This document shows, in pieces, positions 3,361 to 34,799 of a stretch of 44,253 nucleotides of DNA; positions within the stretch are counted from its first letter, which is position 1; the number at the start of each line of letters is the position of its first letter. A program made the position numbers and the translations under genes. The stretch comes from Rotaria sp. (taxonomy: Eukaryota). The stretch lies in assembly GCA_905250055.1 (NCBI GenBank), contig CAJNOF010000004.1:4268656-4312908 (forward strand). The letters run 5' to 3'. Under the pieces are notes generated by a model that saw nothing but the letters and a program-made list of their open reading frames with translations, made no database searches and was not told the DNA's origin.

Positions 3361-6300
3361 CTATAAAAAAATAAAGTAAATTTTGTTATTAATGAAAGAA
3401 AAAAAAAGAAATTTACCGTTTTGATCGAAGAAAATCAAGAAATTTTTGAAATTTTTGAAATGTATTTTCAACTACTGCACAAAAATGATCTTGTTCTCGT
3501 TGTGCTAAATCATTTTTTGCTAAAACCTAATCAATAAAAAAAACACACATAATAAATATTAAAAACCTGTTGGTGATAAACACAGGAAGATTATTTCCAG
3601 GCACATTTCTTCATCACCGTTTTATCTAACCCTCCAGAAATGCCATAAGGAAACAGTCTATATACTAAAACAGGACCTTATTAACATATAGTCTTTGATC
3701 ATGTATTAATAACGTTTGTGATAGTCTCTGCCTAGCTTTTGCTACGGTTCGAGAGCGAAGGGATGATTACGAATTTCTACACTATACAATTCACAGGATC
3801 ATAACCAGGAATTTTCCAAAGAGGGTGCACAGCAGCAGGAAAATAATTGTCTCTTTTGTAAGCTTTTTTTTTATTTGTAACCTATTCCAGATTTTTTTGC
3901 CAAAGGGGATGCACAAGCATCGTGTGCATTCCCTGGCTACGCTCCTGACACGTCATCACTCGTTTTAGATCATGTTTCACAAGACAAACACAAACTAATT
4001 CTTCTATTATTCTTTTTACCTGTTGAAGTTGTTCTTCTAATTGTTTTTTAGCTTGACGTTCTTCACGTAGTTTATTTTCTAATCTTTGTATTCGACTCTA
4101 TAACAAGAAAATTTTACAAAATCCTATTTGAATATTCATTCCTAAATAACATACGATTGGATTTTCTTTAATTGGTTGTTGCTGCAAATCACCACCAACA
4201 CCAGCACCATAAATCGATTCTTCTGATGAATGAAACGCACGTGTTGGTAATTTAGGTGGAAATCCACTGATCAAAAAAACAAACACAGAAATTCGCTAGT
4301 AAAATAATATTTGAAAAAACATATATATGTATATAAACATACGGCAATCGACTTGCACGAGCAGCTGTTCTCCATGGTATTCCATCACTTCTCGGTTCAG
4401 TTGAAACTGATCCAGTTGATTTACTACGTTGTAATTTCGTTGGATCAACTGGTGTTTTCGGCTGAAAATAAGCTGGTCGATTAGTACCTGTTGTTGTCGT
4501 TGTTCGAGCAATTTTCGAACGTGGACGTCGAGGAGATTCAAGTTTTAACCATTTATACTAATTCACAAAAAAGAAGTATTATTTATTTATTTATTTTTTG
4601 GGTCAAATACAAACTTCACATAAACGATCATCTTCACAATTAATTAATAATTGTTCAATTAATTTTTCCATAACATCACGATCAACAAGAGGATTATTAC
4701 GAATATCGATTATATGTATCAGACTATTGTATTTAGCTGCATTCAAAAATTCTTTTGCACCATTTGTTGATATTGCGCAATCTTGCAGATCGAGAGCTGA
4801 AAGAAAAAAGAAAATAAATTAACTTCTTTAACAATAAAAAATTCTCTTCTATTTTCTTAGATATTTGTAAATCATAGAAATATAAATGTTTGCAAATTTT
4901 AAATTCCATATCTTTTTGCATGATATTGCTAATATATAGGAAGTAAAAATAAAAAGAGAATAAAATATTCTATTTTCTAGTCAAATAGATGTAACAATCA
5001 AGATTTGTGCAGCAGTATTCATAATTCAGACATTAGTAATTTAACGAAATGAGAAGTAAATGTGGTTATATATTTTATTCAGTCGAGTATAGAAAAGATA
5101 ACTATACTTTTACTTTAGTTCTTTGGTTTTCCTTATTTTCCATGATAGTCTACAAGCTCTAAGAGCTTGAGCTATAGATACGTCTTCTGTTGCGAATTTC
5201 TGAATCGTAGGTATATATCCTGTCGATTAGTTACATACGAATCACAGTGTCTATCAAGGTCCTAGCGAAAATATCGTTCAAACAAGGACATCCTTCTGAA
5301 GTAGTTCGTCAAAATACTAGGATGCATGATCATGTCAATGGCATATTATTATACTAAAAAATAAGTTCACAAACGTCTAAGTTCCTTAATGAAATTTATT
5401 TCGTGCTTTACTAAAAATCCAACTTAATGAACTTATAATTAGAAAAGAATAGAATTAATTATATTTGGATATATTAAATAAATACCTTTAATCCAAAGAT
5501 CAGCTTCAAGTACTTCAGCTAAAAATGTTGCACCACGATCAGCAATTAATGGATTTCGATTAAGTGTTACACGTCGTAAACCAGACATATGGTCAAGCAT
5601 TGGATTTTGATATGGTAAACTTTCTTTTTGTTGATGACGAAGACTTTCTTTCCAAACATCTGTATGACGTCGATTTCCTTGTTGCTAGAAAATCAGAAAA
5701 AAGAAACAATTTGTTAATTGATCGAATCGTGACTTTAGAAGTTTTTTTCTTCTTGTCATGAAATAGAATGAACACGCAACAATAATTTTTGAATAATCAT
5801 ATTTTGTTTTGTATTATCTTATATAGTTATATCTTTTTTCTGTTCTCCTTCAATTTATTCTTATAGATTTATTTTTTCTTGTTTTAGTCATTATGATGAA
5901 CAATGAAACAATATCATTCATGTTAAATCAAGTTTTTTTCTCAATCGGTCATTTAGTTGCTATATGTACTCTTTTATTTATTGTAGCAATTTTTATTATT
6001 ATAGTCTTTCTCGTATTTATTCAACCACGAAGAAGATATTATTTTGATTCAAACGAATTCAGAAGTGAAACAGATCTCACAACAATTGGATATGACTCAC
6101 TAGAACTTACACATTTTAAATAATAATCAAAAAATGACTTTGTTAACATTAATTAGTTTATTTTAATTAGATATTAATGCAAAGAACAAACAAACTCCCT
6201 TAACGACGAATTATAACTTTCTGTGAAATAGTTTTTTAAAGATATATATCTCTCACTTAGTTTGCATGAATCTTTAGAATAAAATTAAAAAAATATCTAT

Positions 6301-7194
6301 TAACTTACTCTAATCAGATCAGCAATAATATGTGCACCTTGACTGGTAAGTGAACAAGCTGAAAAATCCACTTCACGAATTTTAGGTGCTTGATTTAAAT
6401 GTCGACAAAGAACTGAAAGAATGACATATTGGTGTTTTTTTTCCTCTCTTCAAAGATTTTCAGTTAATCAAATTTTCTTACTATCAAGTCCTTCATCACC
6501 TATTGGACTATTTGTAAGACGAAAATGAATAAGTGATTTACATTTTGCAATACCCTTCAAAAAAATAGATTTATTTGATAGATTAAATCATTTTTGCATT
6601 TTACTTGAGCTAAAATTGTTAAATCTTTACGTCGAAATGGAAGACCATCGAATTCAAGTAAGACAAGTTCTGTTGTTATTAAGAGACTATCTTTAATATG
6701 TGTACAAATTTTTGAAAGTAATTCTTTTGATTGAAATATTGGTGGACGTTTTGAAGCAGATGAAGCTCGTTTTAATGTTCGTCGCTCAGCTAATTTGAAA
6801 AGAAATACAAATATTTGAAGTCTTTTCTTTGGTTTCATCAACAAAAAAAAAAAACACAAACCTTCAGCAAAATTACTTGATAGTGAATTATAATATTGAC
6901 TTCGTAATGTAAGAGAACGAAGTGTTTTACATGTACCGATAGCAGAACATAATGGTGTCCAGTCATCAAATCTAAATAAAATAATTTTGAAAAAATGAAG
7001 AAATAAAACAAAGAAAAAAACATATTGAATCTATACCGAAGATTATCAGTATCTAAATCAATAATTCCCGAATCAAGTTTTATTTTAACAACTGATAAAG
7101 GTAATAAATGATATTGACGACAATAATCATCGTATTTCGGACCAAAATCACATGGAACATCTGATGTTGTCTTAGTTATTGGATCGACACGCAT
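3171..7194 (-). CDS. 12-exon gene for an RNI-like leucine-rich-repeat protein with a short C-terminal coiled coil (PPP1R37/LRRC45-like), 571 codons. Model: complement(join(3171..3360, 3417..3526, 4020..4097, 4155..4266, 4343..4557, 4615..4796, 5486..5684, 6309..6412, 6482..6554, 6605..6789, 6862..6971, 7037..7194)).
   Basis: All junctions use GT donors (gtatag, gtttgt, gtaaaatg, gtaaga, gtaagtt, gtattt, gtatgttt, gtaaaaag, gtaaattt) and AG acceptors with consistent phases. Exon lengths sum to 1716 nt with a single stop at 3171-3173. The product MRVDPITKTTSDVPCDFGPKYDDYCRQYHLLPLSVVKIKLDSGIIDLDTDNL... carries repeated ribonuclease-inhibitor-type LRR units (LTSQGAHIIADLIR, LTNSPIGDEGLDIL, LNRNPLIADRGATFLAEVLE, ISTNGAKEFLNAAKYNS). 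It then has a Ser/Thr-rich linker, a coiled coil (SRIQRLENKLREERQAKKQLEEQLQQ) and an acidic Ser-rich tail. Family identity is inferred and the exact orthologue is uncertain. Confidence 0.7.
3417..3526 (-). CDS. LRR gene exon 11.
   Basis: VLAKNDLAQREQDHFCAVVENTFQKFQKFLDFLRSK; acceptor attgattag; donor gtaaattt. Confidence 0.65.
4020..4097 (-). CDS. LRR gene exon 10 (coiled coil).
   Basis: SRIQRLENKLREERQAKKQLEEQLQQ; donor gtaaaaag. Confidence 0.65.
4155..4266 (-). CDS. LRR gene exon 9.
   Basis: (P)GFPPKLPTRAFHSSEESIYGAGVGGDLQQQPIKENPI; acceptor ttgatcag; donor gtatgtta. Confidence 0.6.
4343..4557 (-). CDS. LRR gene exon 8.
   Basis: YKWLKLESPRRPRSKIARTTTTTGTNRPAYFQPKTPVDPTKLQRSKSTGSVSTEPRSDGIPWRTAARASRL; donor gtatgttt. 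Confidence 0.6.
4615..4796 (-). CDS. LRR gene exon 7.
   Basis: ALDLQDCAISTNGAKEFLNAAKYNSLIHIIDIRNNPLVDRDVMEKLIEQLLINCEDDRLCE; acceptor tttctttcag; donor gtttgt. Confidence 0.7.
5486..5684 (-). CDS. LRR gene exon 6.
   Basis: QQGNRRHTDVWKESLRHQQKESLPYQNPMLDHMSGLRRVTLNRNPLIADRGATFLAEVLEADLWIK; acceptor ttttctag; donor gtattt. Confidence 0.7.
6309..6412 (-). CDS. LRR gene exon 5.
   Basis: ILCRHLNQAPKIREVDFSACSLTSQGAHIIADLIR; acceptor ttctttcag; donor gtaagtt. Confidence 0.7.
6482..6554 (-). CDS. LRR gene exon 4.
   Basis: GIAKCKSLIHFRLTNSPIGDEGLD; donor gtaaga. Confidence 0.65.
6605..6789 (-). CDS. LRR gene exon 3.
   Basis: AERRTLKRASSASKRPPIFQSKELLSKICTHIKDSLLITTELVLLEFDGLPFRRKDLTILAQ; acceptor caaattag; donor gtaaaatg. 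Confidence 0.65.
6862..6971 (-). CDS. LRR gene exon 2.
   Basis: (R)FDDWTPLCSAIGTCKTLRSLTLRSQYYNSLSSNFAE; acceptor tttatttag; donor gtttgtg. Confidence 0.65.
7037..7194 (-). CDS. LRR gene exon 1, with start codon ATG at 7194..7192.
   Basis: MRVDPITKTTSDVPCDFGPKYDDYCRQYHLLPLSVVKIKLDSGIIDLDTDNL; donor gtatag. This is the first ATG after an upstream in-frame stop. Confidence 0.6.
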
Positions 7195-7835
7195 GATTTG
7201 TTTTTAAAACAATTATTAATAATCAAAGAACATGTTTCTTTACTCTAAAAAAAATTAAGAGATGATGATATAATAGTTTCGTTTGCGGTTATCGCTGACT
7301 GGATGAGTAGAACAAGGCACCACATTATCCATGTCGCTAAGTAAATGTCCTCAATATTAAATGATTAAATTCTTTCATTAATCAATTAAATTATTTAGTT
7401 TTTGAATAGATGCATCTTTTATTTCTTTTATTTTTTATATAAAAAATTATTTTCAATAAACTCAGTTGACATAGATGGCGTCATTGTTTTAATCTATTTT
7501 TTTGACGATGCAAACGATTTTTTTTCTACTTTCGTTTGCTCTCGACATGACACATACTGGCTTGTGCAATAGCATGAAAGAAAAAAAAATATATATTGCA
7601 CATACTCTGGTTGTTCTTACACCATCAACTGTCAATTCGGATTTTTTTTATAGTTGTGAATAACCCGAGTCTGACATTTGTTTGCCTTTCTTTCTGCTCG
7701 CTTGTGCAACGTTGTTTCTTTCTCAACTCGATGTTTTTTTAGTTATTTGCATTTAAATACTCGAGTTATTTTATTTTTTACTTTCATTTGTTTTTTTACA
7801 CTTCTAGTAGTATCTTCAATAGTGAGCACAAGAAA

Positions 7836-8621
7836 ATGGCTGATCCCAAAAAGCCATCAACGGCATCCTCATTATTGTCTACGACAAGTTCATTTTTGTC
7901 AACAAAAAATACTACTCTTAACAGTAGTTCATTACTTCAAGGATCGAGTCTTTTATCTTCATCAACATCTAATAAAACAAGTTCACTTTTATCAGAAACG
8001 AGTACAAGCAAACCATCGGGTCTTCTTTCATCATCAAATGTATTAGGTTCTCTGCAAAAGCCATCATCGTCTTCAACTCTATTGAATACTTCATCTAAAC
8101 TATCATTTGTTTCAACACAATTAAATACTTCATCTAAACCATTATCTTCATCAAGTCTATTAAGTACTCCTCCTAAGTCATCTTCATCAACTCTATTAAA
8201 TACTGCTCCTACATCATCATTTCTTTCCACTACAAAAATATCTACTAACAATACATTGCTTTCATCATCAAATTTAAATAATTCATCTTTATTAACAAGT
8301 GAAACAAGTTTAAGTCGAAAACGTAAAGCTGAACCTTTAGAATCAACAGGCATAAATCAATCATTAACTCAAGAAACTTTAAAGAAATCTACATTAACAG
8401 CAACAAAAACAAGTACACCTGTTTCACTCTCGGATGAAAATGAACGCAAATATAATGCTGAAAATATCCAACCTGAATCGATTCGTCTTAATGTTGATTT
8501 ACATTGTCATATTCCAGCACCGAAACGTCCTCGTATTGATCCATTTTCTTCAATCTATGCTAAACTTGAAAGTCAAAATATAACAGATGATGATTTCAAT
8601 GTGGGCATTAAATCGATTAAG
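7836..8621 (+). CDS. TEP1: TEP1 exon 1: Ser/Leu-rich repeat region plus basic (NLS-like) segment.
   Basis: [67 protein letters not shown]...SRKRKAEP...[34 protein letters not shown]; donor AAG|gtttga. Confidence 0.75.
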
Positions 8622-11600
8622 GTTTGATATCGATTGTTCTTTTCTTGGAAAAAAAAATTTATATCCATTGTCTTTTTGTAGAAAAGTTTTCTTAATTCAT
8701 TGGCTGACTCATTATTAAGTCAACCAGATCTAAGAAAACAAACAGATTCAAAACGAAATGAACTTATTCGTCTTGCTAATTTAGTAATTGAACAAGATCC
8801 AGAATTTATTCTTAAAGTAAAATTCAGATAAAATTAGAAATATTTTATTTATCGAAAATTATTTGTTCTTTTGTCTTTTCATTTTAGGCTGCTCTTTATA
8901 CACGAAATCATTTGAATATTCGTATAACAGCGAATTTTCTAATTGCATATGCTGCATATACCGAACCCTGTCGAATATTTTTAAAAAAATATTTTCAAAT
9001 AACAGTTAATTTACCATCAGATTGGATTGAAATAGCTGAACTTTATCAAACATTTTTTGATAAACGTATTCATTTTGGTTCATTACCATCTGCATTACGT
9101 CGTGTTATGGTCAAAAAATTTCCTGATTTTGATAAATATCAGCTTGCAAAATATAATAAAGAGAAAGCTCGTTTGAAAAAAGCAAAAAAGGCTAATGCAC
9201 CAAAATCTACAAATACAACTAGTGCAACTCGAGGACGAGGAAATGTTGCTTGGAGAGGTAGTACTCGAGGTTCTCGATCAATGCGCGGACGGGGAACAAA
9301 TCGATCATCTTCAACCGATTCGAATATGAGTGTTGCATCAGTAGAACAAAAATTGGATAAAACAACAAAAAAAGCAATGGCTCAAATTACTGAAGAAGAC
9401 CGTGAAACACGACGAATGGCATTCACATTAAAACGATTAATTCGTCAATTACATATTAGTGAACCAGTTGAACATGTTTGGTGTCTATTAGGTAAACGAT
9501 ATCCGGAAACATCCGAACTTTTTTATCAATCACGTTTACCTGGTGTATTCGATCCAGAACGTGCAAATAAACGTATGAAATTACCAACACCAGAAACGTA
9601 AGTGACATTAGTTTTCTTTATTTTAGGTATTTTTATTTTACAAATTTTTCTTTTTTAACAGATGGGAAACACAAATCAGTCTTAAAGGAAACAAAGCTGA
9701 AGTTTGGCAACAATTAATCGATAATAAAAAACTTCCATTTATGGCTATGTTAAGAAACTTACGAAATATGATTAAAGTTGGTATGTATTGAGAAAACTGA
9801 TAGAATTTATTAAATATGATTATCGTAGTTTTCTATAAAATATAACAAAAATAAACAAATAATCTCTATTTTAATCTTTTATTTTTCAGGTATCTCGGAA
9901 AAACATCATCAATGGGTATTAAAAAAACTTCAAGATGATGGTGCAGTTATATACAGTCGTCAATTTCCATTTCGTTTCTTTTCGGCATATCAAATATTAG
10001 ATGAACTTGAAGATGAATTTAATAAATGGTGTGCAGCTAAAGAAACAGTAGCTGGAGTAACAGATATTAAAAGTCGACGATTAACACGAAAAGAAAAAGG
10101 AAAAAAAACTGCATTAAGTCCATTAGAAAAAGCTAAAAAACTTGGTTCAAAAGAAATAAAATATGATGTTGCACTTTTACAACGTTATAAAAAAGCACTT
10201 GATTGTTCAGTTAAAATAGCTACTCAACATAATTGTCAACCTATACCTGGTCGAACATTTGTTTTTTGTAATTTAAGTGAAGCTATGTCTCAACCATGTC
10301 AAGCAGCTAGAGGTTTAGGTAAACCCCGAACACGTGCTGAAATAGGTCTTTTAATGGGTTTAATGTGTAAATCAGCATGTGAATCAAGTCAATTAATTAT
10401 TTATAAAACAAAAGATAGTTTTACTGAAATTGAACAAACACCACAAGAAACAATACTTAATCAAATGACAAAAATTTTATCAAATAATCAACTTTCATCA
10501 TCATCAACATCAGATGTATGTATACCACCAACATTTCTTACAAATATGATTGCTGAAAAACAATGGTTTGATAATATGTAAGTAATGAAAAACAATAAAC
10601 GAAAATAAGTTTAATTCTACGTTTTTTTTTTAATTTTCTTTTTAGTATTATTGTTTCGGATGGATTAAAAGCTGATACAGCTGAATCAGATTTTGTTTAT
10701 CGATTTCTTTCACTTTATCGTTATTTAGTTAATCCTGAACTGATGTTTGTTAGTATTGATTTAAGTATAGCTCAATGTTCATTAACAAAATCCGATCGAT
10801 TTAATAATCGAAATGATATATTTTTAAGTGGTTTTTCTGATTCAATTTTACAATTTATTGCTGAACGTGGTAATGATGGACAATTATTACATGTTGAAAA
10901 TATTGATAATGCACATAATCTTAATAAACAAGTTGAATCAAACACAGAATCACAATCAATAACAGACTCATCAAATGAAGAACGATCAAAATTATCGACA
11001 AACTTACCAATGACGACATTAGTACCACGTTGGCGAACAGTACGTGTATTTATATCATCAACATTTAAAGATATGCATGCTGAACGTGATCTTCTAACAC
11101 GTTATGTTTTTCCCGAATTACGTCAACGAGCAAAAAGTCTTTTTGTTAATCTGTATCAAACAGATCTTCGATGGGGTATTGCAGAAAGTCAATCAAGACA
11201 ATCTGTTTTCTTATGTCTTAATGAAGTATATCGTAGTGATTATTTTATTGGTTTAATTGGTGAACGTTATGGTTTTATACCAAAATCATATGATGCACCA
11301 AAAGATGATCCACGATATACATGGTTAAATAAACTACCAATTGGTTATAGTATAACAGATTTAGAAATGCAAGCTGGTGCACTTCATTCATCCACAAAAC
11401 AAAATCGAGCATTTTTTTATCTTCGTGAACCAAAATTTCTTTCAAATATTCCTAAACCATGGTCTGATGATTTTAATTCTGAAGATCAAGATTCACAAAC
11501 AAAAATAAATAATTTAAAACAACGTATACGTTCAAGTGGTTTTGAAACATTTGATGGTTATCCATGTTCATGGCAAGGTGTATCAAATGATCGACCACTT

Positions 11601-14600
11601 GTTACTGATCTTGAACAATTTGCACAACGTGTTATTGATAATTTATGGACATCATTACAAGAAGAATATAAACCTGAATATGTTCTATTAGATGATAATG
11701 AAATAGAAGATAATCAACATCAACAATATCGTATGTCATTTATGGAACATTTTGTTAGTCGTAATAAAATTCTTCAAGATACAATTAAATCTCTTGGAAA
11801 ATCATCAGTTATTCTTATTACAGGACAACAAGGTTCAGGTAAAACAGCAGCTATTGCAGCTATTGCTAATAATATTTTATCAAAACTGGATTTAAATGCT
11901 AAAGTATATGAACATTATGTTGGTATTACACGTGCATCCTTAAATAGTGTTGCAATGCTTCGTCGTTTACTTTGTCAAATGATAAATGATCATTCCGAAG
12001 TAGCAAAACAATTTCCAATTGATAAAATTCGTTCAAGTTCATATACAGATTTATGTAAAATATTATCAGATTTCTTTCATACGATAAAAGGTCCATTAAA
12101 TATTGTTATTTGTATTGATGGTATTGAATTACTTGATAATGATACATTAGTTCATACATTAAATTTTATTCCAAAAGATTTTAATTTTGAAAAAATAACG
12201 TTTATTATTAGTGCTACAGAAGATAGTAATGTTGAACAAGCATGTAAAAATTTTTCTAATTTATTAACAATTAATATATCAAATCTTGAATTACTTGAAC
12301 GTAGTGAAATTGTTCGTAAACATCTTGATCGTTTTGGTAAAAAATTAGATGAACAAGCATTTTCATCACAAATGAAATTTATTACAAGTAAACGTGATTC
12401 ATTTAAACCATCATATTTAACATTAATATGTGAAGAATTATTATTAATGACAGATTATGAAAAGAAAATAACAGAAAAATTAAAAGCTATTCCACAAAGA
12501 CAATATTTATTTTTACTTGAAATATTTAAACGATTAGATACATTATTTGGTGAAACATATGTTGGTACAATATTTGGTTTAATTTATTCAGTACGACAAG
12601 ATTTAACTGAACAAGAATTACGTGATTTAATTAATATATCATTTAGTTCAACGAAAACATTACCTCCACCAGATAATTATACTTATCCAATAACAACAAC
12701 ACCTTTACAATTAGCTGATTTTATTTATAATTGTCATATTTTATTAAAACCTCAACTTTATGATGGACCACAAACAGTTTCAATAGCATCAAATGAAATT
12801 CGTCAAATAGTTAAAACACGATATATCCATTCAAATGAACAACAAATTAATTTATATAAACTTCTTGCTTTTTATTATTGGTGTGAAGCAACTGGACCAC
12901 AATGGACATCAATGAATATTAAAGCATATGAACATTTACCATATTATTTATATGCTGCTGAAGAATATAAATTATACTATTCATTATTAACTAATCTTAA
13001 ATTTATTGCTGGTAAATGTCGTGTTGGTCTTGTTCAATCATTAATTGATGATTATGAATTAATTAAATCTCTATCAAAAGTTTCAACTCATAAACAAACT
13101 TCTTCAATTATGAAAACAAAATCAATATCATCAACAAATACAAAAGAACAACCAATAAATGAAGTATTTCTTCAACAATATCGTTCATTTATACAACGAA
13201 ATAGTCATATTCTAGTTGTTAATCCATCATTAATTTATCAACAAGCATTAAATGAATTAGAAACAAGTCCTGTTTTTGATAATATACAACAAATACTTTC
13301 TAATCATCAAAAAAATTCATCCAATACAAATGATCAAATAACAGCATTTGTTCGTATTAATAAACCAGATAATATGGAACAAATGAAATATTCAATTGAA
13401 GGTTTTACAGAACCTATTCGATGTTTAGCAATATCACCATCAGGTAAGTTAAAATAAAATAAAAATACGAATATGAAAAAAATAATAATCAATTTTATTT
13501 TATTTTTTAGGTGTTCATCTAGCTGCTGGTTCTGCTGATTGTTTAATTCGTCTATATAATACATCAACATCTCGTTTATTAAAATTATTTGTTGGTCATG
13601 CTGCACCAATATCTGCTCTATGTTTTGTTGGTAATGATCGTTTAGTAAGTGGTAGTAATGATGGTGGTTTATCAGTTTGGGATGTATTAAATGGTCATCG
13701 TTTAAATATACTTTCACCAAAACATGATAAACGAGTTTCAGAATTATGTTCAAATCAACGTGGTACACAATTTGCATCTGTTTCATGGGATTCATTTGTA
13801 CGTATATGGGATATACAAAAAAGTCGACCAGATACAGAAATTCGTTTACATCCTAAACCAGTATCAAGTGTAGCATTTCATCCTGATGGTTTTATGTTAG
13901 TAACTGGTTGTTGGGATAGTATTGTTCGACAATGGAATGTAACAACTGGACAACGTAAATCAGTTATGCGTGGACATTTAAGTTCAATAAAAGCTGTTGC
14001 TTATTCAGCTGATGGTCGTTATATAGCATCATGTTCAATTGATGGTGAATGTCGTTTATGGAATTCATTAACTGGTAGTCAAGTTGGTCTTATATCAGCT
14101 CGTATAAGTTCGATTTATTTTTCACCAAATGGATCAACATTAGCATCAGCTGGTAATGATGGTCGTGTTCGAGTATTTTCATCAACAATAGGTCAATGTC
14201 AAATGATTATAACGAATGAAACATGGGGTTCAGTATCGAGTATTATGATTCATCCTGAAGGAGAATTTATTATAGCTGGATATCATTCAGGTTCTATAAG
14301 AGTATTTGATATACAAAATGGTACTACAGAACAAGAATTTCATTATCATAAAGGTCGTATTAATCGTCTTGGATTTTCATCTTCATCAGGAAATATTTTA
14401 ATATCAGCATCAAATGATCATAATTCTCGTATATATGATTTAAAAGATTTAGGTAAAAGAACTGATATTCGTATTCAAACAGCAATACTTAAAGGTCATA
14501 CAGCAGCTGTTCTATCATGTGCTATGAGTAAAACGAATATGATTGCAACAGGATCTGAAGATGCAACAATTTGTTTTTATGTACTATCAAAATATTTTGA

Positions 14601-16566
14601 ACGTTCATCACATGAACCAAATGAAATTTTAACTGAACATCGTACACCAATTACTGGTTTAACATTTAATAATGAAACACATCAATTAATATCAGCTAGT
14701 CGTGATGGTCAAGTACATATATGGAATATAAATCGATATTCATCAAAAGCTGTTGTAACACTATCAAATACACTTGCTCATTGTCATGCTGATTGGATAA
14801 ATGATATTGCTTTATCAAATACAAATAATGGTTTACTTGTAACTGCATCAAATGATAATACATTAAAAATTTGGAATACAATACCAAAAACAACAAAAAC
14901 TAATGATGATTCTATGGATGTTGTTTCAGCTAATGTTGAAGAAGCACGTGTAACACTTCGTGGTCATCAAGGCTCAGTTAATACAGTTTGTTTTTCATAT
15001 GGATGTGTTGTTTCTGGTTCATTGGATAATACAATTCGAGTATGGTCTCATAAAGGGACTGAAATAACATGTTTACGTGGTCATACAGAAAAAGTAACTT
15101 CATGTGACTTATGGATTAAATTAAAAGGTGTTCCTATAAAATCTGAGACCGATACAGATTCTAAATGGGCAAATATAGTTGAAGAGCAAGAAAAAGAACT
15201 TTCACGTACAACACATACAGTTGATACAATGCTTGTTGTTAGTGCATCAGAGGACGGTTCAATACGTGTATGGCGTCCAACTGATCCTGAACAACGTTGT
15301 GTGTATGATGCACATGCACAACCATTAAATGATATAGTACTAAATAATGAATCAATTGTAACATCATCACTTGATAAAACAGTTCGTTCATGGCAAATTC
15401 CAACAAATATGTTTATAAATAATGATTCAACAACATCAGCAATGACACCTCAAGTTGTTCCACCTGTTAGTCATTTAGATGAAGTTACATCGATTAGTGT
15501 TTCTCGTGATAATTCACTTGTTTTTACTGTTTCACGTGATGCATATCTATTTATTTGGTCATTATTATCATTATCATCAAAAAATGATGATTATGAAATG
15601 GATACAGATATGATAAAAAATAAAATGTCGAAACAACCATTTCGTATCATACAATCAGTTAAAGCACATGATGAAACAATTCTTGGTATGGCTTTAGTCC
15701 GTTCCGATACTCAACATCATATTCTTGTAACTGGTTCTGTTGATAAAAAAATTAAAATTTGGACAATCATAAATAATCAAAATGACGAAAAATGTTCAAT
15801 TAAACGTTTAAGAACGGATACAACAGCAAATGGACCTGTTTCATTTGTTTCTGGTCGATATGATATGCCATATTTTGTTGTTGGTGAAAATCAATCATTT
15901 GATTCACTTACATTCTATCTTTATTCATCAACTTCACTTGACCGTTTAAAAACATATAAAACACAAACATGTCAATGGCCATTATCATCATTAATAACAT
16001 TAAATGAACATCAACATTATATTTTAACAATTGGTTCAACAAGTAATGAATTATGTTCATATGATTTATCATTAATTGATTCAACAGATAGTAAATTATA
16101 TGCATCATATGCATCAACAATCGAATATCGAACATCAATAACATCTGAATGGATAACATCAATAGAAAATTTTGATAATAATAAAGTTTTTTACTTAGGT
16201 ACAACAACAGGAAATATTTATTCAACAACAAATTTATTTAGTGATATAAAAACATGGAATAAAAATCAAATATCATCAAAACAACGATCAATTACAGCAT
16301 TATGTTCAATTAATAATGAACTTATATTTACAAGTGGTTTTGATAATGTCATACGAGTACAATATAGAAATGATCATGCAAAACATATGAATACAAATGA
16401 TGATGATGAACAAGATGAAAAAGTTGATGATATTCTTGGACAGTATCCTGTACCAGCACCAATTACACAAATGCGTACATGGAAACAAAACAATAATGGA
16501 ATATTTGGTGTTGTAGCCGGTGATACATTAGGAAACCTATATTTAGTACAATGGTATTCGTCTTAA
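7836..16566 (+). CDS. TEP1: TEP1 homologue (telomerase-associated protein 1 / vault TEP1), 7 exons, about 2,760 aa. Domain order: Ser/Leu-rich N-terminal repeats, TROVE, DUF4062, NACHT NTPase, long WD40 array. Model: join(7836..8621, 8682..8816, 8888..9597, 9662..9780, 9890..10577, 10646..13443, 13511..16566).
   Basis: All six introns are short (59-108 nt) and GT-AG with matched phases (gtttga, gtaaaa, gtaagt, gtatgt, gtaagt, gtaagt; acceptors ttttgtag, cattttag, tttaacag, ttttcag, ctttttag, ttttttag). The TROVE region is [59 protein letters not shown]...[21 protein letters not shown]4062 is [50 protein letters not shown]...[17 protein letters not shown] Walker A is [20 protein letters not shown] and Walker B is [14 protein letters not shown]. 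More than 15 WD40 units follow (GH..., WD/WN dipeptides, e.g. [45 protein letters not shown]). The TROVE-DUF4062-NACHT-WD40 order is the defining TEP1 architecture (established knowledge). Start ATG at 7836 (agaaaATGg) and stop TAA at 16564-16566. Confidence 0.85.
8682..8816 (+). CDS. TEP1: TEP1 exon 2 (start of TROVE).
   Basis: [45 protein letters not shown]; acceptor ttttgtag; donor gtaaaatt. Confidence 0.7.
8888..9597 (+). CDS. TEP1: TEP1 exon 3 (TROVE).
   Basis: Continuous ORF (8912..9601 in the ORF track) extended 5' to acceptor cattttag|gct; donor ac|gtaagtgac. Confidence 0.8.
9662..9780 (+). CDS. TEP1: TEP1 exon 4.
   Basis: (T)[39 protein letters not shown]; acceptor tttaacag; donor gtatgtat. 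Confidence 0.75.
9890..10577 (+). CDS. TEP1: TEP1 exon 5 (end of TROVE / vWA-like part).
   Basis: [52 protein letters not shown]...[10 protein letters not shown]; acceptor atttttcag; donor at|gtaagtaatg. Confidence 0.8.
10646..13443 (+). CDS. TEP1: TEP1 exon 6 (DUF4062 + NACHT NTPase).
   Basis: 904-aa ORF in track (10743..13457) extended to acceptor ctttttag|tat; Walker A GQQGSGKT; Walker [11 protein letters not shown]; donor cag|gtaagtt. Confidence 0.85.
13511..16566 (+). CDS. TEP1: TEP1 exon 7 (WD40 array, stop TAA at 16564-16566).
   Basis: 890-aa ORF in track (13894..16566) extended 5' to acceptor ttttttag|gtg, in the same frame. Dense WD40 signature: ...GHxxxIxxLxFxxxGxxLxSGSxDxxIxxWD. 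Confidence 0.85.
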
Positions 16567-18533
16567 GTGTGATCATATATATATATATTCTTATACAGTT
16601 TATTATCCGTCTTTTCTTTTTTTTTAGTATACTTAAAAAATTACTTACACTTTTTACTATTGTATCATTATAATATAATTTTATTTTCTAATAAAAATGA
16701 TACAAAAAAAACACATATGCATATATTCTTATGATCTAAATTGCGCGCTATCAAGGTATAGATATTCATAGCAATTAAGAATCTGCCACTGTCTCGATGA
16801 GAAATTCTTCGAAAACATCGTCCGTCAGTCTACGAAACTATCACAATCAGATTGAATCCATCAGATACATCCAGATTTTGACTGTTGCATCTGCAAACAC
16901 TCAAATGTACATTTAGTTTTTTTTTAATTTTGAGGTTTATTTTGTTCTTTGAAACAATTGAAACAATGGGTACTCAATCAGAACATTCATCTATAATATG
17001 TATTAGGTACCAAAAGAAAAGAAAAACAATTTAGTCGTGCAAAATAATATTATTCAAGAATTTGCAAGTACATTGAAATATGTTTTCAGTTCGTTAGGTC
17101 GAATTTTGGAAAAGAAGAAGACCATCCATAAATCCAGATGTTTTGATGATTAGAAGTTTTCATGATATGAAGTATTGTTTTTTTTTGTTCGCTTTATGAT
17201 TGAAAGCAACTGAATTAAGACACATAAAAAACTGATATGAAAGTTTGGATCTTTCAATAGTGCTAAGCAGGACAGGATCAGATCGTCTAAACATCGTGCT
17301 CTGCAACCTTCTTATCTGGTATAATGGTTATAACATTAGTTTCGAAATGATAAAATACTTACTTTTCATAAATAGATATAATAAAAAGTCTTCAAAAGAA
17401 AATTTTTCAATTTCGCCAAATAAATTAATGCTTATGTTTGAACAGATAATCAAGAATTCCAATCACAATTTGAAATGACTAATATCTTCACTAAAAGAAC
17501 TTTTTTTTTCGATTGAATGATTTATCTAGATTAAGAAAATAATTTCATTATTTATATTTAATCGAATCTAGCAATAATAATAATAAATGAAACGAAAATT
17601 TATCAATTCTATGTTTGACTAATTATCCTGTCTCTTTTTTCTCTCACATATAATAATAATAAACAAACACAAAAGATCTTAAAAGTCACTAAGAAAATTA
17701 GTCAGTATGAAATTCTTCAAGTTTACACATATGTGTATATGTATGTGTATAAAAATAAAACAAGAAAGTATTTAGAACATTTAAGAAAATAATACATAAA
17801 CATACATTCATTTATATATGAATAATGATCTTGACATCTTATATTCATGTTTCATCATATATCTGCATTTTATCATAAACATATGTAATCATTGAGAGAA
17901 AAATAGTTTATTTTAACAGTTGAAGACTTCAAGAGAATTCAACAAAATTTCAAAACTTCACCACTCAAGTTCTTCTTGTTGTTTGATCTTTCGTAATAAT
18001 ACATATATTGACAAAATTATTTTCTTCCAATCTAACTTACTACACTAGCAATGGATGAATTTTTACATAATGAATGTTTACAACAATAGATTCTACACAT
18101 TTATATATAAAATTATTCGACATGCTCTCAAAAAATTTACTCTTGAAAGCTTTTGTTGAATAAAAGTATTACGAGGAAAAAAAACTAGCATTATATAACT
18201 AATGCGATCTTAAAAGAGCGTAAATTTCTACTTCCAGCATATGATTTGAAAATAATTGACAATTTGAGATAATATTTTTGAAAGCTATATGATATTACTT
18301 CTAGATCATTTATGATACTCTAGAATGTTTCTCAGCAGTTTTTTCAAAAAAAATCGATTTACTTGTCGTTAACAAAGTGTTCGAATATGAATATATAAAC
18401 GAAGAAATACTCTTGCAGTTGAATACAAATTTTCGAATCAACTTAATGTTTTCGAATCTATCCTTAAACCTTGACGTTCATTTTCCGTAAATGCTTAGAG
18501 AACTATTTTTTAATTAATAAATTTTTATTTTAA

Positions 18534-25039: not shown

Positions 25040-25425
25040 GCAATTCTATACTTCTACATACTTACAATACATATTGAAAATGAATGAGATTATAAGAGGC
25101 CTTATTATCTTTTTTGCGTATATATCTATATTATAAACTAAACATCAAATGCATGTATACACATTGTAAATTATGTTCTCTTATCTATCATTATAATAGA
25201 ACAGTGCAAAAAAAAAAATTATAATCTTGATATATGAATACTCTATTCTTTCGTCTTTTCTTTCGTAACAAAAAAGTTAATTCTTTCTTTTTTCATTAAA
25301 ATACAATTTTTTTTTTCATACAAATGAATAACTTGATTTATATGAAAGTGTTTCTACTTCATCTAGTTCTTCATCAATATCTATTGATTTGATTGTTGTT
25401 ATATGTCTAAAATTATCATTTGGTA

Positions 25426-27314
25426 TTAATTTTGCTGTGAATAAGCGATTGTATCGTTTAGTAGATGGCTGAATATCACATCAAATGAATTTTCTCGTTG
25501 TAATTTTCTATTGAAATTCATATGATATAAATATGGCGAACTAATGGGTCTATCAGATGTTCTTATATCGTTCAATTCTTCATTTTCATAATTCCAAAAT
25601 TGAGGAGCATCAATCAATTGTATATGATTAAATTTTTCATAATCGAATCCACTTAATGTAGAATTACATGGTGAAAATTGATAACCCCATAAAAGTTCAT
25701 TAGGTAAATAAGATGTACGAAAATGACATCAAAAACCAGTATAATCAAAAGAACCTTCAATAATAGCAATGATTTCAAAATGTTATTTTTCTAATGTTGA
25801 TTGTTGTATACCATAAAGTGGACTACGTGAATTAATAATATGTTCAACAATAGTTGGTTGAGGAAAAAATAATTGATCATTACGTAAGTGTGGTAATTCC
25901 ATATCATAGATTTGATGAGGAATTATTTCACCTTCAAGTGTTCGTCGCTGACGAATCATTAGTAAACGAACACTAGCAAATATCAATTAAGAAGTTGATA
26001 AGTTAACTATAAAAAAAAAGAAAAAGAAATGAATCTTTCTTTTATAATGGTTTATTTGACATACCTATTCGAAATGTTAATGGTAATTGATTATTTCGTG
26101 GGGCAATGAGCGGATAATTACTGAATATAATAAATTGGGATTTTTCTAAAAATATACAAAAAATATTCATTTATTATCATCAATCAAACAAACTAACAAA
26201 AATAATATTCTTTCATTATGGAATATTTCTAGAAGACCTTGATGGTTTACAATCTATTCTGAAATTATTCATAGAATTAGTTCAGCTTTGAATTTAATTA
26301 ATGAAATTTACTTTTATTTTGTTAAGTATCAGAAAAAAGAATAACCTTCGCCTGTAGGTCGTGATAATTTAGTAAAAACAATTTGTGTGACAATAACTTG
26401 TAATAAATATTCAAGTAATGATTGAAGAGTTCATACAAGTATACCACCCATACATTCTGTTGTTATATATCTTGAACCATAACCAATTGTATGTTGTGTT
26501 TCAATAGAAAAAAGTAATGCACTTAAAAAATCATGTACAGGGTTGCCAAAAATGTTTTGCCCGGGGGATACAGCTCCAATGACAAATGATATCAATATTG
26601 AATTTGATACAAAATGGAAGCCCGTCAAGAATGGGGTTTATCCATACGAATGAATAAGGGCTATAAAGACTTTTCTCTATCAAACTTTGATAATTTCTAA
26701 AACTCCATGAACTATAGTCATAGCAAAACTATCCTTTATCATAGAGAACTCAAACTATTCCTGATATAAAATTACTAAACATAGAAAGGTTATCCTTACT
26801 TTTTATGGCTTAATGAATGATACAAAATAAAGGTAACTTTGCTAGATTCAGTATTTTTATATCAGAAGTAGTCTGAGTTCTTTATGATAAAGGATAGTTT
26901 TGCTATGACTATGGTTCATGGAGTTTTGGAAATTTTCAAAGTTTGATAGAGGAAAGTCTTTATAGCCCTTATTCATTCGTATGAATAAACCCCATTCTTG
27001 ACGGGCTTCCATTTGGTATCAAATTCAATATTGATATCATTTGCCATTGGAGCTGTACCCACGGAGCAAAACATTTTTGGCAACCCTGTACATCTTGAAC
27101 ACATTTTTTTTGTTCTATTTTCAAATATTGTCGTGTATAATTTGTTTGATTATCTAATAAAACTTGTTCATCATCGTTTAAAACAATATATCCATGTTCA
27201 ATTGAAATAAGAACATAAAGTGAGGAAAAGAAAAACCAACCTAATATAAAACCAAACAAAACAAATATTAATACAAGCCACCAGTAGAGGGCTGTAGATT
27301 GCTCTATTTTGACA
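25426..27314 (-). pseudogene. Inward-rectifier K+ channel (Kir/KCNJ family) gene copy that appears disabled. Recognisable segments: M1 helix (27092..27313), pore helix/selectivity filter + M2 (26346..26530), cytoplasmic C-terminal domain exons (about 26061..26146, and 25426..25972).
   Basis: The minus-strand translation is collinear with Kir2/Kir6 sequences. Segments: (i) LYWWLVLIFVLFGFILGWFFFSSLYVLISIEHGYIV...KKCVQ (M1); (ii) [62 protein letters not shown] (pore TIGYG + M2); (iii) EKSQFIIFSNYPLIAPRNNQLPLTFRIG; (iv) IVRLLMIRQRRTLEGEIIPHQIYDMELPHLRNDQLFFPQPTIVEHIINSRSPLYGIQQSTLEK*HFEIIAIIEGSFDYTGF*CHFRTSYLPNELLWGYQFSPCNSTLSGFDYEKFNHIQLIDAPQFWNYENEELND... There are three in-frame stops at aligned, normally coding positions: TGA 26431-26433, TAA 25783-25785 and TGA 25729-25731. 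A 560-bp hairpin interrupts the M1-pore exon. The conserved N-terminal cytoplasmic segment (…RFV.K.G.CNV.F…IFTT.VD.KWR) could not be found; the sequence upstream of M1 is the ctgccctgccctg repeat instead. Confidence 0.65.
26531..27090. repeat. 560-bp long hairpin / foldback element. The two roughly 225-bp arms (26531..26760 and 26870..27090, about 93-95% identical as reverse complements) flank a partly palindromic roughly 110-bp centre.
   Basis: The left arm 'atgtacagggttgccaaaaatgttttgcccgggggatacagctccaatgacaaatg...' is the reverse complement of the right arm '...catttgccattggagctgtacccacggagcaaaacatttttggcaaccctgtacat'. The boundaries fall exactly inside Kir coding sequence: right flank ...KKCVQ / left flank [13 protein letters not shown].... 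Confidence 0.8.
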
Positions 27315-31700: not shown

Positions 31701-32903
31701 TCATCAATTCACTTGACCAACAATTTTTGTTTTTGTATTCAATAAAATACACATTGCTATGTTAATATTAGACATTGCAGCTGTGAAAAATGAATGAGAT
31801 GTTTATAAACACCGAGTACTAAAATACTAAGGTTTTGACGAATACATGCAATCCTTTATTTCACTTTGGTACGTAGCTGCTATAATAATATTTCCAACTG
31901 TTGTTTTATTGATTATTATTTGTCATAGCGATGATAGATGAGTAAATTTATTACTAATTAGACGATGAATGTGCCTTATTAGTACAATAATTACTGCAAA
32001 TTACATTTCTCATTAAAATAGATAGAGGAAGATGTCGTCAAAACAAGAATGTAAGCAAGTACTTTTGTGTCTACTCTCGAAGCAGAAGAAAGAAAACGTG
32101 CATCACTTGATTGTTTGTTCAATAATAGTTCTTTTTTAATTTTTAACGAAAGGATATCATCTAATAAAGTTTTCTTTCTCGATGTATCTCATAATTGCTA
32201 TATACAACATCATCATACAACGACTATTTATGGATTATATTTGGGTTCCGTCTTCCATGTTTACTATCACAAATGAAATATTCGTAACTAAGTTTCTTTT
32301 TAACTGTGAAATCAAATTCTAACTGATTAATCTTATCGATTACTTCCTTTACTGTTCAATATTTCACGCCTTTTAAAAATACTAAATAGGTAGAATTTAA
32401 AAAAAAACAATCTGATTAGTCACTTGCTCATTTTTCTCTGTAAATAAATGACGAAACATTTTTGAAATAAGTTCTAGTATTATACTGCCATCTTTGATTA
32501 TAAAAAACAAAAAAGAAATCTTTGGTGAATATCTTTCGACTAATAAATAAAATAAATAAATAAAAAGTCGTTCAAATACGAATGGTTTATTCTTTCCATC
32601 AATCAAGGATATTATTTATGTAAATGATCATCCAATAAAAATGATTGATTAAAAAAAGAGTCAATCAAAATGAGGGTACATAAAGACATAAATAAAGTTT
32701 ACAATGGAGTAAATACATATGAAGACCTATTCTGTCAGTTAAGGAAACAAAACAACAAATATTTTATTTCTCAATTATATTGTTACTTTTATGATTATTT
32801 TATTTTTAAGATCTATTTTTTTTTTCTATTTTTTTGCATTTTGTTTATCATCATAAAAGTTGTTAATATGCACTGTTAACATCTTAAGAAAAAAAACCGA
32901 ATT

Positions 32904-34799
32904 ATGTCACCGAATAATCGATTTTTTTCATGCTTTTTTTCTCGTTTCTCAACTACTAATAATGATCATCATCGAGCTCATCAACTTGTTAATACCGAAG
33001 ATGAAATAAATAGTGATGATCCGACCGAACACACAATAGTTGAAGAACAAAATCTTGTTTCTCAACCAATAACAACAAGAGCTTATTCATCATCCTCAAT
33101 ATTAAAACGATATGAACGAAATTATATTTCAGCATCATGTAGTATGTTTGCTATAGCTGCATTAGCAGTAAGTCTATCTGATTATCGATGGTTCTGGTTA
33201 AATGGTGGTTTATGCAATTCAAAATATATTGGTTTAAGTATGTTTTTTGCTGTTGGAAAATTATTTGTTGTACGAGTACCTGTTGCATGGGATCCATCAG
33301 CACCAATGAACGAAATTTATCAATTTAAACCAAATGATTATATGGGTATATTTTGAAAAAAAAAGAATATGATCAAATAATCAAAAATTTTTTCTTATAG
33401 ATTTAAGTGGTTGTGTTGATACACGTTCGATATTAATTCTTCGTTTAATGATAACATTAATTTGTTTAGCGATATTTTCTTCGACTATTGGATTTTTATT
33501 AGATGCACTTGGACCAATGAAATTTGGACTAAAATTTATGAGACGTCATGCGTTTTGGCATATTTTATCAGGTAACAAAAAAATAAAAATAAATTTGATT
33601 TAAGTTTTCGTAAATGATTTTATTTTGTTTTTCGATTTGTTTAGTTCTTCTTTGTACAGTAGTAACCGGTCTATGTTTTTGGGCATCGGAATTAATTTAT
33701 GATATTCAAGATAAAACTCGTACGAAAATAGGAAAAAAAGTCGAAGTACAATTCGATGTCGCTTATTATCTTGTTGTTATGTCCAGCGGTCTTTCATTAT
33801 TAGCATCTGCTTTTGCACTCTTAAGACGATATCCAACAGCTGAAGAAGAACATTTAGAAAGGTATATTATTAATCATTTTCGGACGAGATTTACTTATAT
33901 AAAAAAAAAACAAAATTTCAAAAACTTTGTAGGAAAAGAAAAGACGACGATTGAAGGTAGACTATTTGTCTTAATACTACAATATATTGGAGATCGTTAG
34001 ATAATAAATAGATTCCTCATTGATATTTCATGGTATTTCTAAAAAAACAAAGTTCCGATTGTGATAGCAGTTGTTTTTGATTCAGTGATACAAAGAGAAT
34101 AGTGTTGAACGTTTAAAACTTATTATGCCTACAGAATGTTTAAAAAAAACATGCACGAAGATGATGTTCCGTTTTGTTTTGAGAGGTGCTTCACATCTAT
34201 AGTTTAAGACATGATTCAGGTAAACAACTATTCTGCTGACTTCTTATCTAAAGATCTTTAAAATAAAACACAGTTGAATGTTTTTCTTTTTTAAAAGAGG
34301 ATGAATTTTAAAATAATTTTATCTTATGTAGTATCAAGTAATAAAGATGTTCGGAGTTCATTATTTACATACTTATGAGGAAACCTTTTCATTGGTGTCA
34401 AACTTTATGCATATAGAGAACTCAATTATATTAGTTTACATAAAAGGATCATTATGTAGTATCTACAGGCAAAAAAAAATTTATTGAACTAGGAAAATGG
34501 GTATTTGAAGAGGTTCCCTCATTAGTGGAAATCATAAAAGTGCATTGATAAATTAATAATGAGTGGATTCAAAACTCTGTATGTATGTATATGGATATTT
34601 TGTATCTTTGAGAAGTTAAAATAAAAAAAGATCTTTATTTATATTTCTGTTATTATATTTAATTAGATTAATGGATGATTGGTCACGACGTGAAGAACCT
34701 TTGTTTATTGAACGTTCTTTACCGGCTTCAATATCAACAATACCAACAAGTGATGAACCACCACCAGAATATTCCGAACAGAATGTTATTGTAGTATGA
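32904..34799 (+). CDS. 4-exon gene for a four-transmembrane (tetraspan) membrane protein of the PMP22/claudin/LHFPL-like type, ending in a PPxY motif. Model: join(32904..33345, 33400..33571, 33645..33861, 34667..34799); boundaries are +/-1 nt.
   Basis: Exon 1 ORF MSPNNRFF...CSMFAIAALAVSLSDYRWFWLNGGLCNSKYIGLSMFFAVGKLFVVRVPVAWDPSAPMNEIYQFKPNDYM (TM1 followed by an extracellular loop with W..GLC). Exon 2 DLSGCVDTRSILILRLMITLICLAIFSSTIGFLLDALGPMKFGLKFMRRHAFWHILS (TM2). Exon 3 VLLCTVVTGLCFWASELIYDIQDK...AYYLVVMSSGLSLLASAFALLRRYPTAEEEHLE (TM3, TM4). Exon 4 RLMDDWSRREEPLFIERSLPASISTIPTSDEPPPEYSEQNVIVV*. Donors gtatat, gtaaca, gtatat; acceptors ttcttatag, ttgtttag, ttaattag; phases consistent. The family call is inferred from topology and motifs only. 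Confidence 0.6.

Follow-up and report, generated by a model that had tools for sequence, protein, structure and literature searches.

An intact, full-length TEP1 gene in the genome of a bdelloid rotifer

The stretch of DNA from Rotaria sp. that was analysed here as a whole, 44,253 nucleotides (nt) in length and in the following termed the window (assembly GCA_905250055.1, contig CAJNOF010000004.1, positions 4,268,656-4,312,908 of the forward strand), contains at 7836-16566 a complete, intact and ordinary orthologue of TEP1, the telomerase protein component 1 and minor vault protein, of a bdelloid rotifer. The gene structure, the domain order, the orthology and the conservation of the residues E1053 and R1020 and of the Walker A and B motifs are directly observed, and the encoded protein probably is a vault-resident, RNA-holding and autoinhibited STAND NAD(P)ase, i.e. 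a hydrolase of nicotinamide adenine dinucleotide (NAD+) and its phosphate (NADP+), that would be activated by oligomerisation.

Gene structure, domain architecture and active-site residues

The window is AT-rich (GC content of about 29%), and within it the TEP1 gene appears as a series of long open segments in alternating frames on the forward strand, which are joined at canonical GT..AG sites (Table 1). The resulting coding sequence of 8,292 nt encodes 2,763 amino acids (aa), its sole stop codon is the terminal one, and there is no frameshift. Translation would start at the ATG at 7836-7838, which is the first ATG in the open frame and which has an in-frame stop codon 31 codons upstream, and it ends at the TAA at 16564-16566. 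All six introns have GT..AG borders, and with 60-109 nt they are short and have a GC content of 10-25%, as compared to 27-35% in the exons. The first-pass annotation of this DNA, which had been made from the sequence alone, had already given exactly these ends and the seven exons with two giant ones of 2.8 and 3.1 kb, which we find to be 2,798 and 3,056 nt long; its product size of about 2,760 aa was an approximation of the computed one. Its central claim, namely a full-length TEP1 with TROVE, DUF4062, STAND NTPase and WD40 domains, is supported by every test that was run.

Outside of the lineage-specific low-complexity parts, nothing in the domain architecture departs from that of TEP1. The TROVE match covers positions 20-442 of the 442 positions of the profile, and a PDB search with aa 942-1154, the DUF4062 region, returned the TIR-like domain of human TEP1 as its sole match (11gz, E=1.6e-53). 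Two P-loop models passed their cut-offs within aa 1184-1351, which are NPHP3_N with 28.4 bits and KAP_NTPase with 24.9 bits, and the NTPase module also gave weak matches to HTH_NWD1 (25.3 bits) and APAF1_C (20.5 bits). An AlphaFold2 model of aa 1160-1720 reached a predicted local distance difference test score (pLDDT) of 81.7, and when this model was compared to known structures by Foldseek, the best match was APAF-1 (E=3.6e-10), with MalT, CED-4 and Dark also being found. Judged from this predicted fold, aa 1160-1720 is a STAND nucleotide-binding module, with the APAF-1 match being one that cannot separate NACHT from NB-ARC. The C-terminal part matches three propeller models, the general WD40 model with 298 bits and two TEP1-specific ones, Beta-prop_TEP1_2nd with 202 bits (cut-off 89) and Beta-prop_TEP1_C with 77.5 bits (cut-off 32). 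AlphaFold2 predicts only beta structure for the C-terminal 1,049 aa, with a total of 83 strands (pLDDT 74), and the approximately 21 predicted WD40 blades would be enough for three seven-bladed propellers.

The DUF4062 domain of human TEP1 has been identified as a TIR-like NADase in two preprints of 2026. Both human TEP1 and the domain alone (residues 886/896-1113) split NAD+ and NADP+ into nicotinamide and ADP-ribose (or its phosphate). This activity needs E1008, is lowered by the exchanges R908A and R976A, is higher at higher protein concentrations and is also found in reconstituted vaults, and by cryo-tomography TEP1 was located at the shoulder of the vault, on its central axis (10.64898/2026.05.01.722283, 10.64898/2026.09.04.749371). 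In the rotifer protein, E1053 aligns with the catalytic E1008 and R1020 aligns with R976, and both residues are invariant in 14 of 14 aligned sequences, i.e. in human TEP1 and 13 others.

Homologues and evidence for a single gene

When aa 263-1728 were searched against 5.8 billion proteins, a predicted protein of Rotaria magnacalcarata was found with 82% identity, that of a second bdelloid with 76% and that of Didymodactylos carnosus with 64%, and then, among the matches listed, proteins named “telomerase protein component 1” followed at 31-40% identity from many phyla. The named TEP1 matches are from echinoderms, molluscs, annelids, a priapulid, chelicerates, a myriapod, cnidarians, Trichoplax, vertebrates and Amoebozoa. 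In a full-length BLASTP, the identity to the Didymodactylos protein was 61%, and single collinear alignments were obtained with sturgeon TEP1 over aa 258-2428 and with sea urchin TEP1 over aa 93-2498. The gene thus is a conserved member of the TEP1 family, and its close relatives are already public as automatic predictions. Among the bdelloid relatives, the predicted TEP1 of D. carnosus is partial, and the orthologue of Adineta vaga is FUN_026027. The R. magnacalcarata TEP1 (product of CAJOBG010000734.1) has the same N-terminus and the same neighbouring genes as the window copy. Its deposited model is short by about 250 aa (approximately aa 2379-2630 of the window protein) because of a run of N at 16264-17010 of the locus sequence (CAJOBG010000734.1), whereas the window copy is complete. 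With a nucleotide identity of 78-86% to R. magnacalcarata, the window copy could either be a homoeologue or represent the orthologue of a different species. A horizontal transfer of the DUF4062-STAND core can be rejected in view of the collinearity with metazoan TEP1s and of the ordinary metazoan neighbours in conserved synteny.

That the seven exons belong together is evident from the second bdelloid, whose 76% identical protein is encoded by an 8,494-nt JGI contig without introns. From the first ATG on, with an in-frame stop codon upstream of it, this contig contains an open reading frame (ORF) of 2,743 aa that begins with MTDPKK and continues without interruption from the Ser/Leu-rich tract through TROVE to the last WD40 repeat. 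A tblastn alignment of the contig protein with the window resulted in six segments, the five boundaries of which coincide with introns 2-6 with a few residues of slack each, and the query coordinates are contiguous, i.e. no residue is lost at any junction. Intron 1, whose 60 nt leave the frame unchanged, was for this reason read through by the alignment, and the match, which covers exon 1, intron 1 and exon 2 without a break, does not mark the start of exon 2. It is the in-frame TGA at 8625-8627 after exon 1, together with the contiguity in the intron-less contig, that makes intron 1 required. The contig could be derived from cDNA or could be an intron-less genomic copy, and either way it shows that in this relative a single ORF comprises the N-terminal tract together with all of the domains. 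As the contig carries the whole ORF and the alignment breaks at the introns, the exons belong to one gene and not to separate genes, which the first-pass annotation had named as the finding that would speak against it.

The N-terminal tail

Upstream of TROVE, the protein has a tail of 262 aa, and among the first 160 of these, Ser accounts for 36%, Leu for 19% and Thr for 15%. The motif [ST][ST][LF][LFI] occurs 10 times in this region, as compared to 1.7 +/- 1.2 expected occurrences, and none of 5,000 composition-preserving shuffles reached 10, but this significance is overstated because the motif was defined after the sequence was read. The about ten Ser/Leu-rich decamers that had initially been described are therefore correct with respect to a motif that recurs about ten times, but they do not form a regular series, as the spacing of the motifs varies between 6 and 31 aa and the only true array has a period of 13 aa (Table 1). 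The low-complexity tract is 72% identical to that of R. magnacalcarata and 33% identical to that of the other bdelloid, whereas the folded domains are 79-88% identical, and such a fast divergence of aa 1-160 is probably that typical of a disordered region. Conserved islands within the N-terminus are M[A/T]DPKK, SSLLST, RKRKAE.LE and PA[P/A]KRPR[I/M]DPFSSI.

The last two of these islands contain the basic motifs that had been proposed to constitute a bipartite nuclear localisation signal (NLS), written as KRKAEP...PKRPRIDP. Both basic motifs are indeed present, but they are 61 aa apart, and with a spacer of that length a bipartite NLS has to be rejected, so that there are two candidate monopartite signals instead. 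The second one (aa 227-236) we take to resemble the monopartite NLS of c-Myc, PAAKRVKLD. A function of either motif as NLS is putative.

A Pfam scan of aa 1-262 at E<=10 gave no match to any family, TEP1_N included, and a view of the tail as a recognisable TEP1_N derivative is thus unsupported by profile search. The same scan with the N-termini of the TEP1 proteins of sturgeon, caecilian, sea urchin and Hydra likewise gave no family, TEP1_N included, from which it follows that the 30-aa repeats do not define the TEP1 family outside of a narrow vertebrate group. The earlier statement that the rotifer tail “replaces” the vertebrate 30-aa repeats therefore cannot be maintained.

A motif of the type [S/T/N]-x-L-L/F-[S/T/N/K/Q/G] is found in the N-terminal tails of the TEP1 proteins of Lytechinus, Hydra and Huso, seven times in each as compared to about one expected occurrence, and it is not enriched in the tails of Capitella, Trichoplax, Pelomyxa and Dimorphilus. 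As this pattern across orthologues was chosen after inspection, its p-values are optimistic, and it should be regarded as a lead and not as a result.

Genomic context and further features

The neighbouring genes at the R. magnacalcarata locus match those in the window, which are a leucine-rich repeat (LRR) gene upstream and an inward-rectifier K+ channel gene (IRK) and TMEM127 downstream (Table 1). A Pfam scan of the ORF fragments at 5.4-7.2 kb, the putative LRR gene, gave no match. The exon fragments of the WD40 gene further downstream we take to resemble LIS1/PAFAH1B1, and their Pfam match is to WD40 only. There are few long ORFs in the rest of the window, the other genes of which are apparently split into many small exons.

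Within the TEP1 gene, five of the six introns are found in the first 29% of the coding sequence, and the other 5.85 kb of coding sequence are cut only once. Such a 5'-biased intron placement is the pattern that a cDNA-mediated, 3'-biased intron loss would leave.

Two antisense ORFs overlap the gene. One of them, at 7937-8353 on the reverse strand, has 138 aa, mirrors the Ser/Leu codon tract and is rich in Asp, Glu, Val and Leu, and the other one, at 13334-13795 on the reverse strand, has 153 aa and spans intron 6. Both were rejected as genes, as they look like by-products of the low-complexity, AT-rich composition.

Compared to the window protein, both R. magnacalcarata and the other bdelloid have a longer version of the variable Arg/Gly-rich loop in TROVE. 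At the same place, RG-rich segments are seen in the other bdelloid and in the TEP1 proteins of Capitella and Dimorphilus, and in that of Pelomyxa an RGG tract is found at the N-terminus. RNA binding and arginine methylation typically occur at such RG/RGG boxes.

Table 1. Location of the TEP1 gene, its exons and encoded domains, and of other features in the window
Feature	Position	Strand	Remarks
Putative LRR gene, upstream, opposite strand	5400-7200	-	sequence reading and annotation of the R. magnacalcarata neighbour
TEP1 orthologue, ATG to stop	7836-16566	+	7 exons, 2,763 aa
Exon 1	7836-8621	+	786 nt; only the lineage-specific N-terminal extension, aa 1-262; TROVE match from aa 262
Ser/Thr/Leu-rich low-complexity region	7836-8315	+	aa 1-160; ten SSLL-type motifs; probably disordered
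Tandem array in low-complexity region	8061-8204	+	39-nt (13-aa) period, 3.8 copies, 73% matches; only array of Tandem Repeats Finder
Basic motif RKRKAEP, NLS-like	8316-8336	+	aa 161-167; conserved in three bdelloid sequences
Second basic motif, NLS-like	8514-8543	+	aa 227-236; conserved in three bdelloid sequences
TROVE, RNA-binding module	8619-10251 (spans introns 1-4)	+	aa 262-704; PF05731, 347.6 bits, E=2e-103
Exon 2	8682-8816	+	135 nt; flanked by GT..AG introns
Exon 3	8888-9597	+	710 nt
Arg/Gly-rich loop in TROVE	9224-9304	+	aa 420-446; variable TROVE loop
Exon 4	9662-9780	+	119 nt
Exon 5	9890-10577	+	688 nt
DUF5920, vWA-like, follows TROVE in TEP1	10348-10922 (spans intron 5)	+	aa 737-905; PF19334, 36.3 bits, cut-off 27
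Exon 6	10646-13443	+	2,798 nt; end of vWA-like domain, DUF4062, STAND NTPase, first WD40 strands
DUF4062 / TIR-like (“NIR”) NADase domain	11031-11669	+	aa 942-1154; PF13271, 49 bits, cut-off 24.7
E1053 codon GAA	11364-11366	+	aligned to catalytic E1008 of human TEP1
STAND NTPase module	11757-13367	+	aa 1184-1720; P-loop, helical, winged helix and helical domains
Walker A GQQGSGKT	11823-11846	+	aa 1206-1213; G, G, K invariant in 12-sequence alignment
Walker B region	12108-12137	+	aa 1301-1310; D-G pair invariant in 12-sequence alignment
WD40 region	13368-16563 (spans intron 6)	+	aa 1721-2763; about 21 blades
Exon 7	13511-16566	+	3,056 nt; WD40 propellers and stop codon
Candidate polyadenylation signal AATAAA	16690-16695	+	124 nt past the TAA stop
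Inward-rectifier K+ channel gene (IRK), downstream	~25400-25730	-	IRK_C match
TMEM127, further downstream	32880-34000	+	order conserved with R. magnacalcarata
WD40 gene exon fragments	35559-37921	+	Pfam: WD40 only

Proposed function and alternatives

How could the rotifer TEP1 work? In analogy to human TEP1, the protein would reside inside the vault shell that is built by MVP, and its TROVE domain would hold a small non-coding RNA. The WD40 propellers may keep the protein autoinhibited, as would be expected by analogy to human TEP1 and to APAF-1 and other STAND proteins. On a signal, the NTPase module would then oligomerise and thereby bring the DUF4062 domains together, and these clustered domains would hydrolyse NAD+ or NADP+, resulting in ADP-ribose (or its phosphate) and nicotinamide.

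Bdelloids have the vault shell, with several MVPs being encoded by A. vaga (PMC10809525). In the same study, the TEP1 gene FUN_026027 belongs to the “core irradiation response” and is induced 2.5 h after X-rays with a log2 fold change of 3.6 and a false discovery rate of 3.5e-48 (PMC10809525, Table S5), and the corresponding values of FUN_026027-T1 are -0.57 at 0 h and 1.4 at 8 h after X-rays (PMC10809525). Two MVP genes rise by about 2.5 log2 fold change in the same Table S5, and a PARP4-like gene rises by 4.5 log2 fold change in the separate Table S8 (PMC10809525). The authors put TEP1 under “telomere maintenance”, without a link to the vault genes (PMC10809525).

Several points weigh against the proposed vault-resident NAD(P)ase. 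The vault residence, the RNA binding and the NADase activity would all be transferred from the human protein, to which the rotifer protein is only about 30% identical overall and 47% identical in DUF4062. Human R908 is replaced by Lys (K954), which is a conservative exchange that is shared by all four bdelloids, Limulus and Priapulus, and for R954, a residue of the human protein projecting into the active site, bdelloids have Gln. Pfam models of the four domains that had been named at the outset also do not all respond: TROVE, DUF4062 and WD40 pass their cut-offs, but the NACHT model (PF05729) scores 16.4 bits, which is under its gathering threshold of 26.7. The membership in the STAND class thus rests on the Walker motifs, the predicted fold and P-loop models related to NACHT, and not on the NACHT model itself. 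Moreover, no Rfam family at gathering score, vault-RNA-like or other, and no tRNA gene (ARAGORN) was found anywhere in the 44-kb window, although no such RNA gene would be expected beside the gene.

The proposal could be extended to a joint reading of the bdelloid data, in which MVP, the TEP1 NADase and the PARP4-like protein would jointly respond to damage by radiation and desiccation as one inducible NAD+/ADP-ribose module, and in which the SSLL motifs of the N-terminal tail would be an expanded linear motif of approximately the type [S/T/N]-x-L-L-[S/T] that could serve docking or tethering and in which the mammalian 30-aa repeats may have their ancestral core. This extension is tentative and, as a whole, rather doubtful. 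If it were true, an inducible NAD+/ADP-ribose module would give vaults a testable physiological role.

What alternatives exist for a vault-resident NAD(P)ase? TEP1 could mainly be a nuclear accessory factor of telomerase or telomeres, which would be imported by means of its basic motifs and would bind telomerase RNA by TROVE. The conservation of the two NLS-like motifs in three bdelloid sequences would agree with this, as would the discovery of TEP1 as a telomerase-associated protein, which is cited in the preprint, and the label “telomere maintenance” of the A. vaga orthologue (PMC10809525). However, this label is an annotation transfer without a test, mouse genetics that are cited in the preprint make a main telomeric function unlikely, and the co-induction with MVP and the PARP4-like gene in A. 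vaga points to vaults (PMC10809525). A nuclear role would, in addition, leave a vault role possible. It is therefore unlikely that rotifer TEP1 mainly serves telomeres.

A free cytosolic STAND sensor that functions without vaults in an apoptosome- or NLR-like manner and depletes NAD+ upon damage or infection appears to be quite unlikely, as human TEP1 is found and active inside vaults, as bdelloids keep MVP and induce it along with TEP1, and as a pure sensor model leaves TROVE unexplained. Such a sensor would be in line with the order of DUF4062, NTPase and WD40, which mirrors APAF-1 with DUF4062 in the place of the CARD, with the fold of the NTPase module that best matches APAF-1, with the role of bacterial DUF4062 proteins as abortive-infection effectors and with the strong radiation-induction of the A. 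vaga orthologue (PMC10809525).

An artefact, i.e. a gene model in which an unrelated Ser/Leu-rich upstream ORF is fused to TEP1, or a decaying pseudogene, could be suspected in view of a low-complexity exon 1 without any Pfam match, of AT-rich DNA that easily yields such ORFs and of the 138-aa antisense ORF over the same stretch, but it is extremely improbable, as the same N-terminus (MADPKK...SSLLST...RKRKAE...) precedes TROVE in the R. magnacalcarata protein and is joined to it within one uninterrupted ORF in the intron-less contig, and as the 8,292 nt have no frameshift or internal stop and none of the residues for catalysis and nucleotide binding is lost. With the frame unbroken, the N-terminus conserved and the ORF continuous in the intron-less contig, a chimera or pseudogene is effectively ruled out.

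The preferred reading thus remains that of a vault-resident TEP1 with NAD(P)ase activity, in a bdelloid rotifer that keeps the complete protein with all catalytic and nucleotide-binding residues intact. The window supplies a gap-free TEP1 gene model where the public R. magnacalcarata assembly has a hole. The context is more useful than the gene itself: a TIR-like NADase activity of TEP1 in vaults was demonstrated in 2026, and irradiation strongly induces the TEP1, MVP and PARP4-like genes of A. vaga. Bdelloids could be a practical system to address the role of the vault NADase, because their TEP1 genes are compact with hardly any introns and because it is clear under which condition they are induced.

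Comparison with known systems

In the bacterial DUF4062 defence proteins Swarozyc, Avs-NIR, Vulcan and Vesta, the TIR-like NADase domain is homologous to that of TEP1 and has its catalytic Glu in common with it, and activation occurs by assembly into oligomers. A module logic in common with prokaryotic immune STAND proteins, which had been noticed from the sequence at the beginning, now has experimental backing by the preprints of 2026. In contrast to TEP1, these bacterial proteins are prokaryotic abortive-infection systems with other sensors and without TROVE or WD40 domains, and there is no evidence of a recent transfer.

Among eukaryotic proteins, NWD1, NWD2, NPHP3, TTC41 and APAF-1 have the same succession of an N-terminal effector, a STAND NTPase and a repeat sensor, but none of them has TROVE, and APAF-1 has a CARD at the position of DUF4062. 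Purified NWD1, NWD2 and NPHP3 showed no NADase activity, whereas TEP1 was active (2026 preprints). That the window encodes a DUF4062-STAND protein of the NWD1/NWD2 type is ruled out by the approximately 940 residues, including TROVE and DUF5920, that precede DUF4062.

Ro60 and p80 of Tetrahymena share with TEP1 the TROVE and vWA-like module that binds small non-coding RNAs, but these proteins end after the vWA domain and thus lack DUF4062, NTPase and WD40 domains. Ro60, which has about 540 aa with TROVE and vWA only, can therefore be ruled out as identity of the 2,763-aa product, in which DUF4062, NTPase and WD40 domains follow TROVE.

A last comparison is that with human and other vertebrate TEP1. 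The human gene has about 54 introns, whereas the rotifer gene has six short ones. The rotifer protein also differs in its N-terminal tail, which is Ser/Thr/Leu-rich with SSLL-type motifs and does not consist of the mammalian 30-aa repeats, and in the Arg/Gly-rich loop within TROVE. In both, however, TROVE, the vWA-like DUF5920, DUF4062, the STAND NTPase and the WD40 domains, including the TEP1-specific second and C-terminal propellers, follow each other in the same order, the proteins are collinear over about 2,200 residues, and they share the Walker motifs as well as the catalytic Glu and one Arg of the active site.

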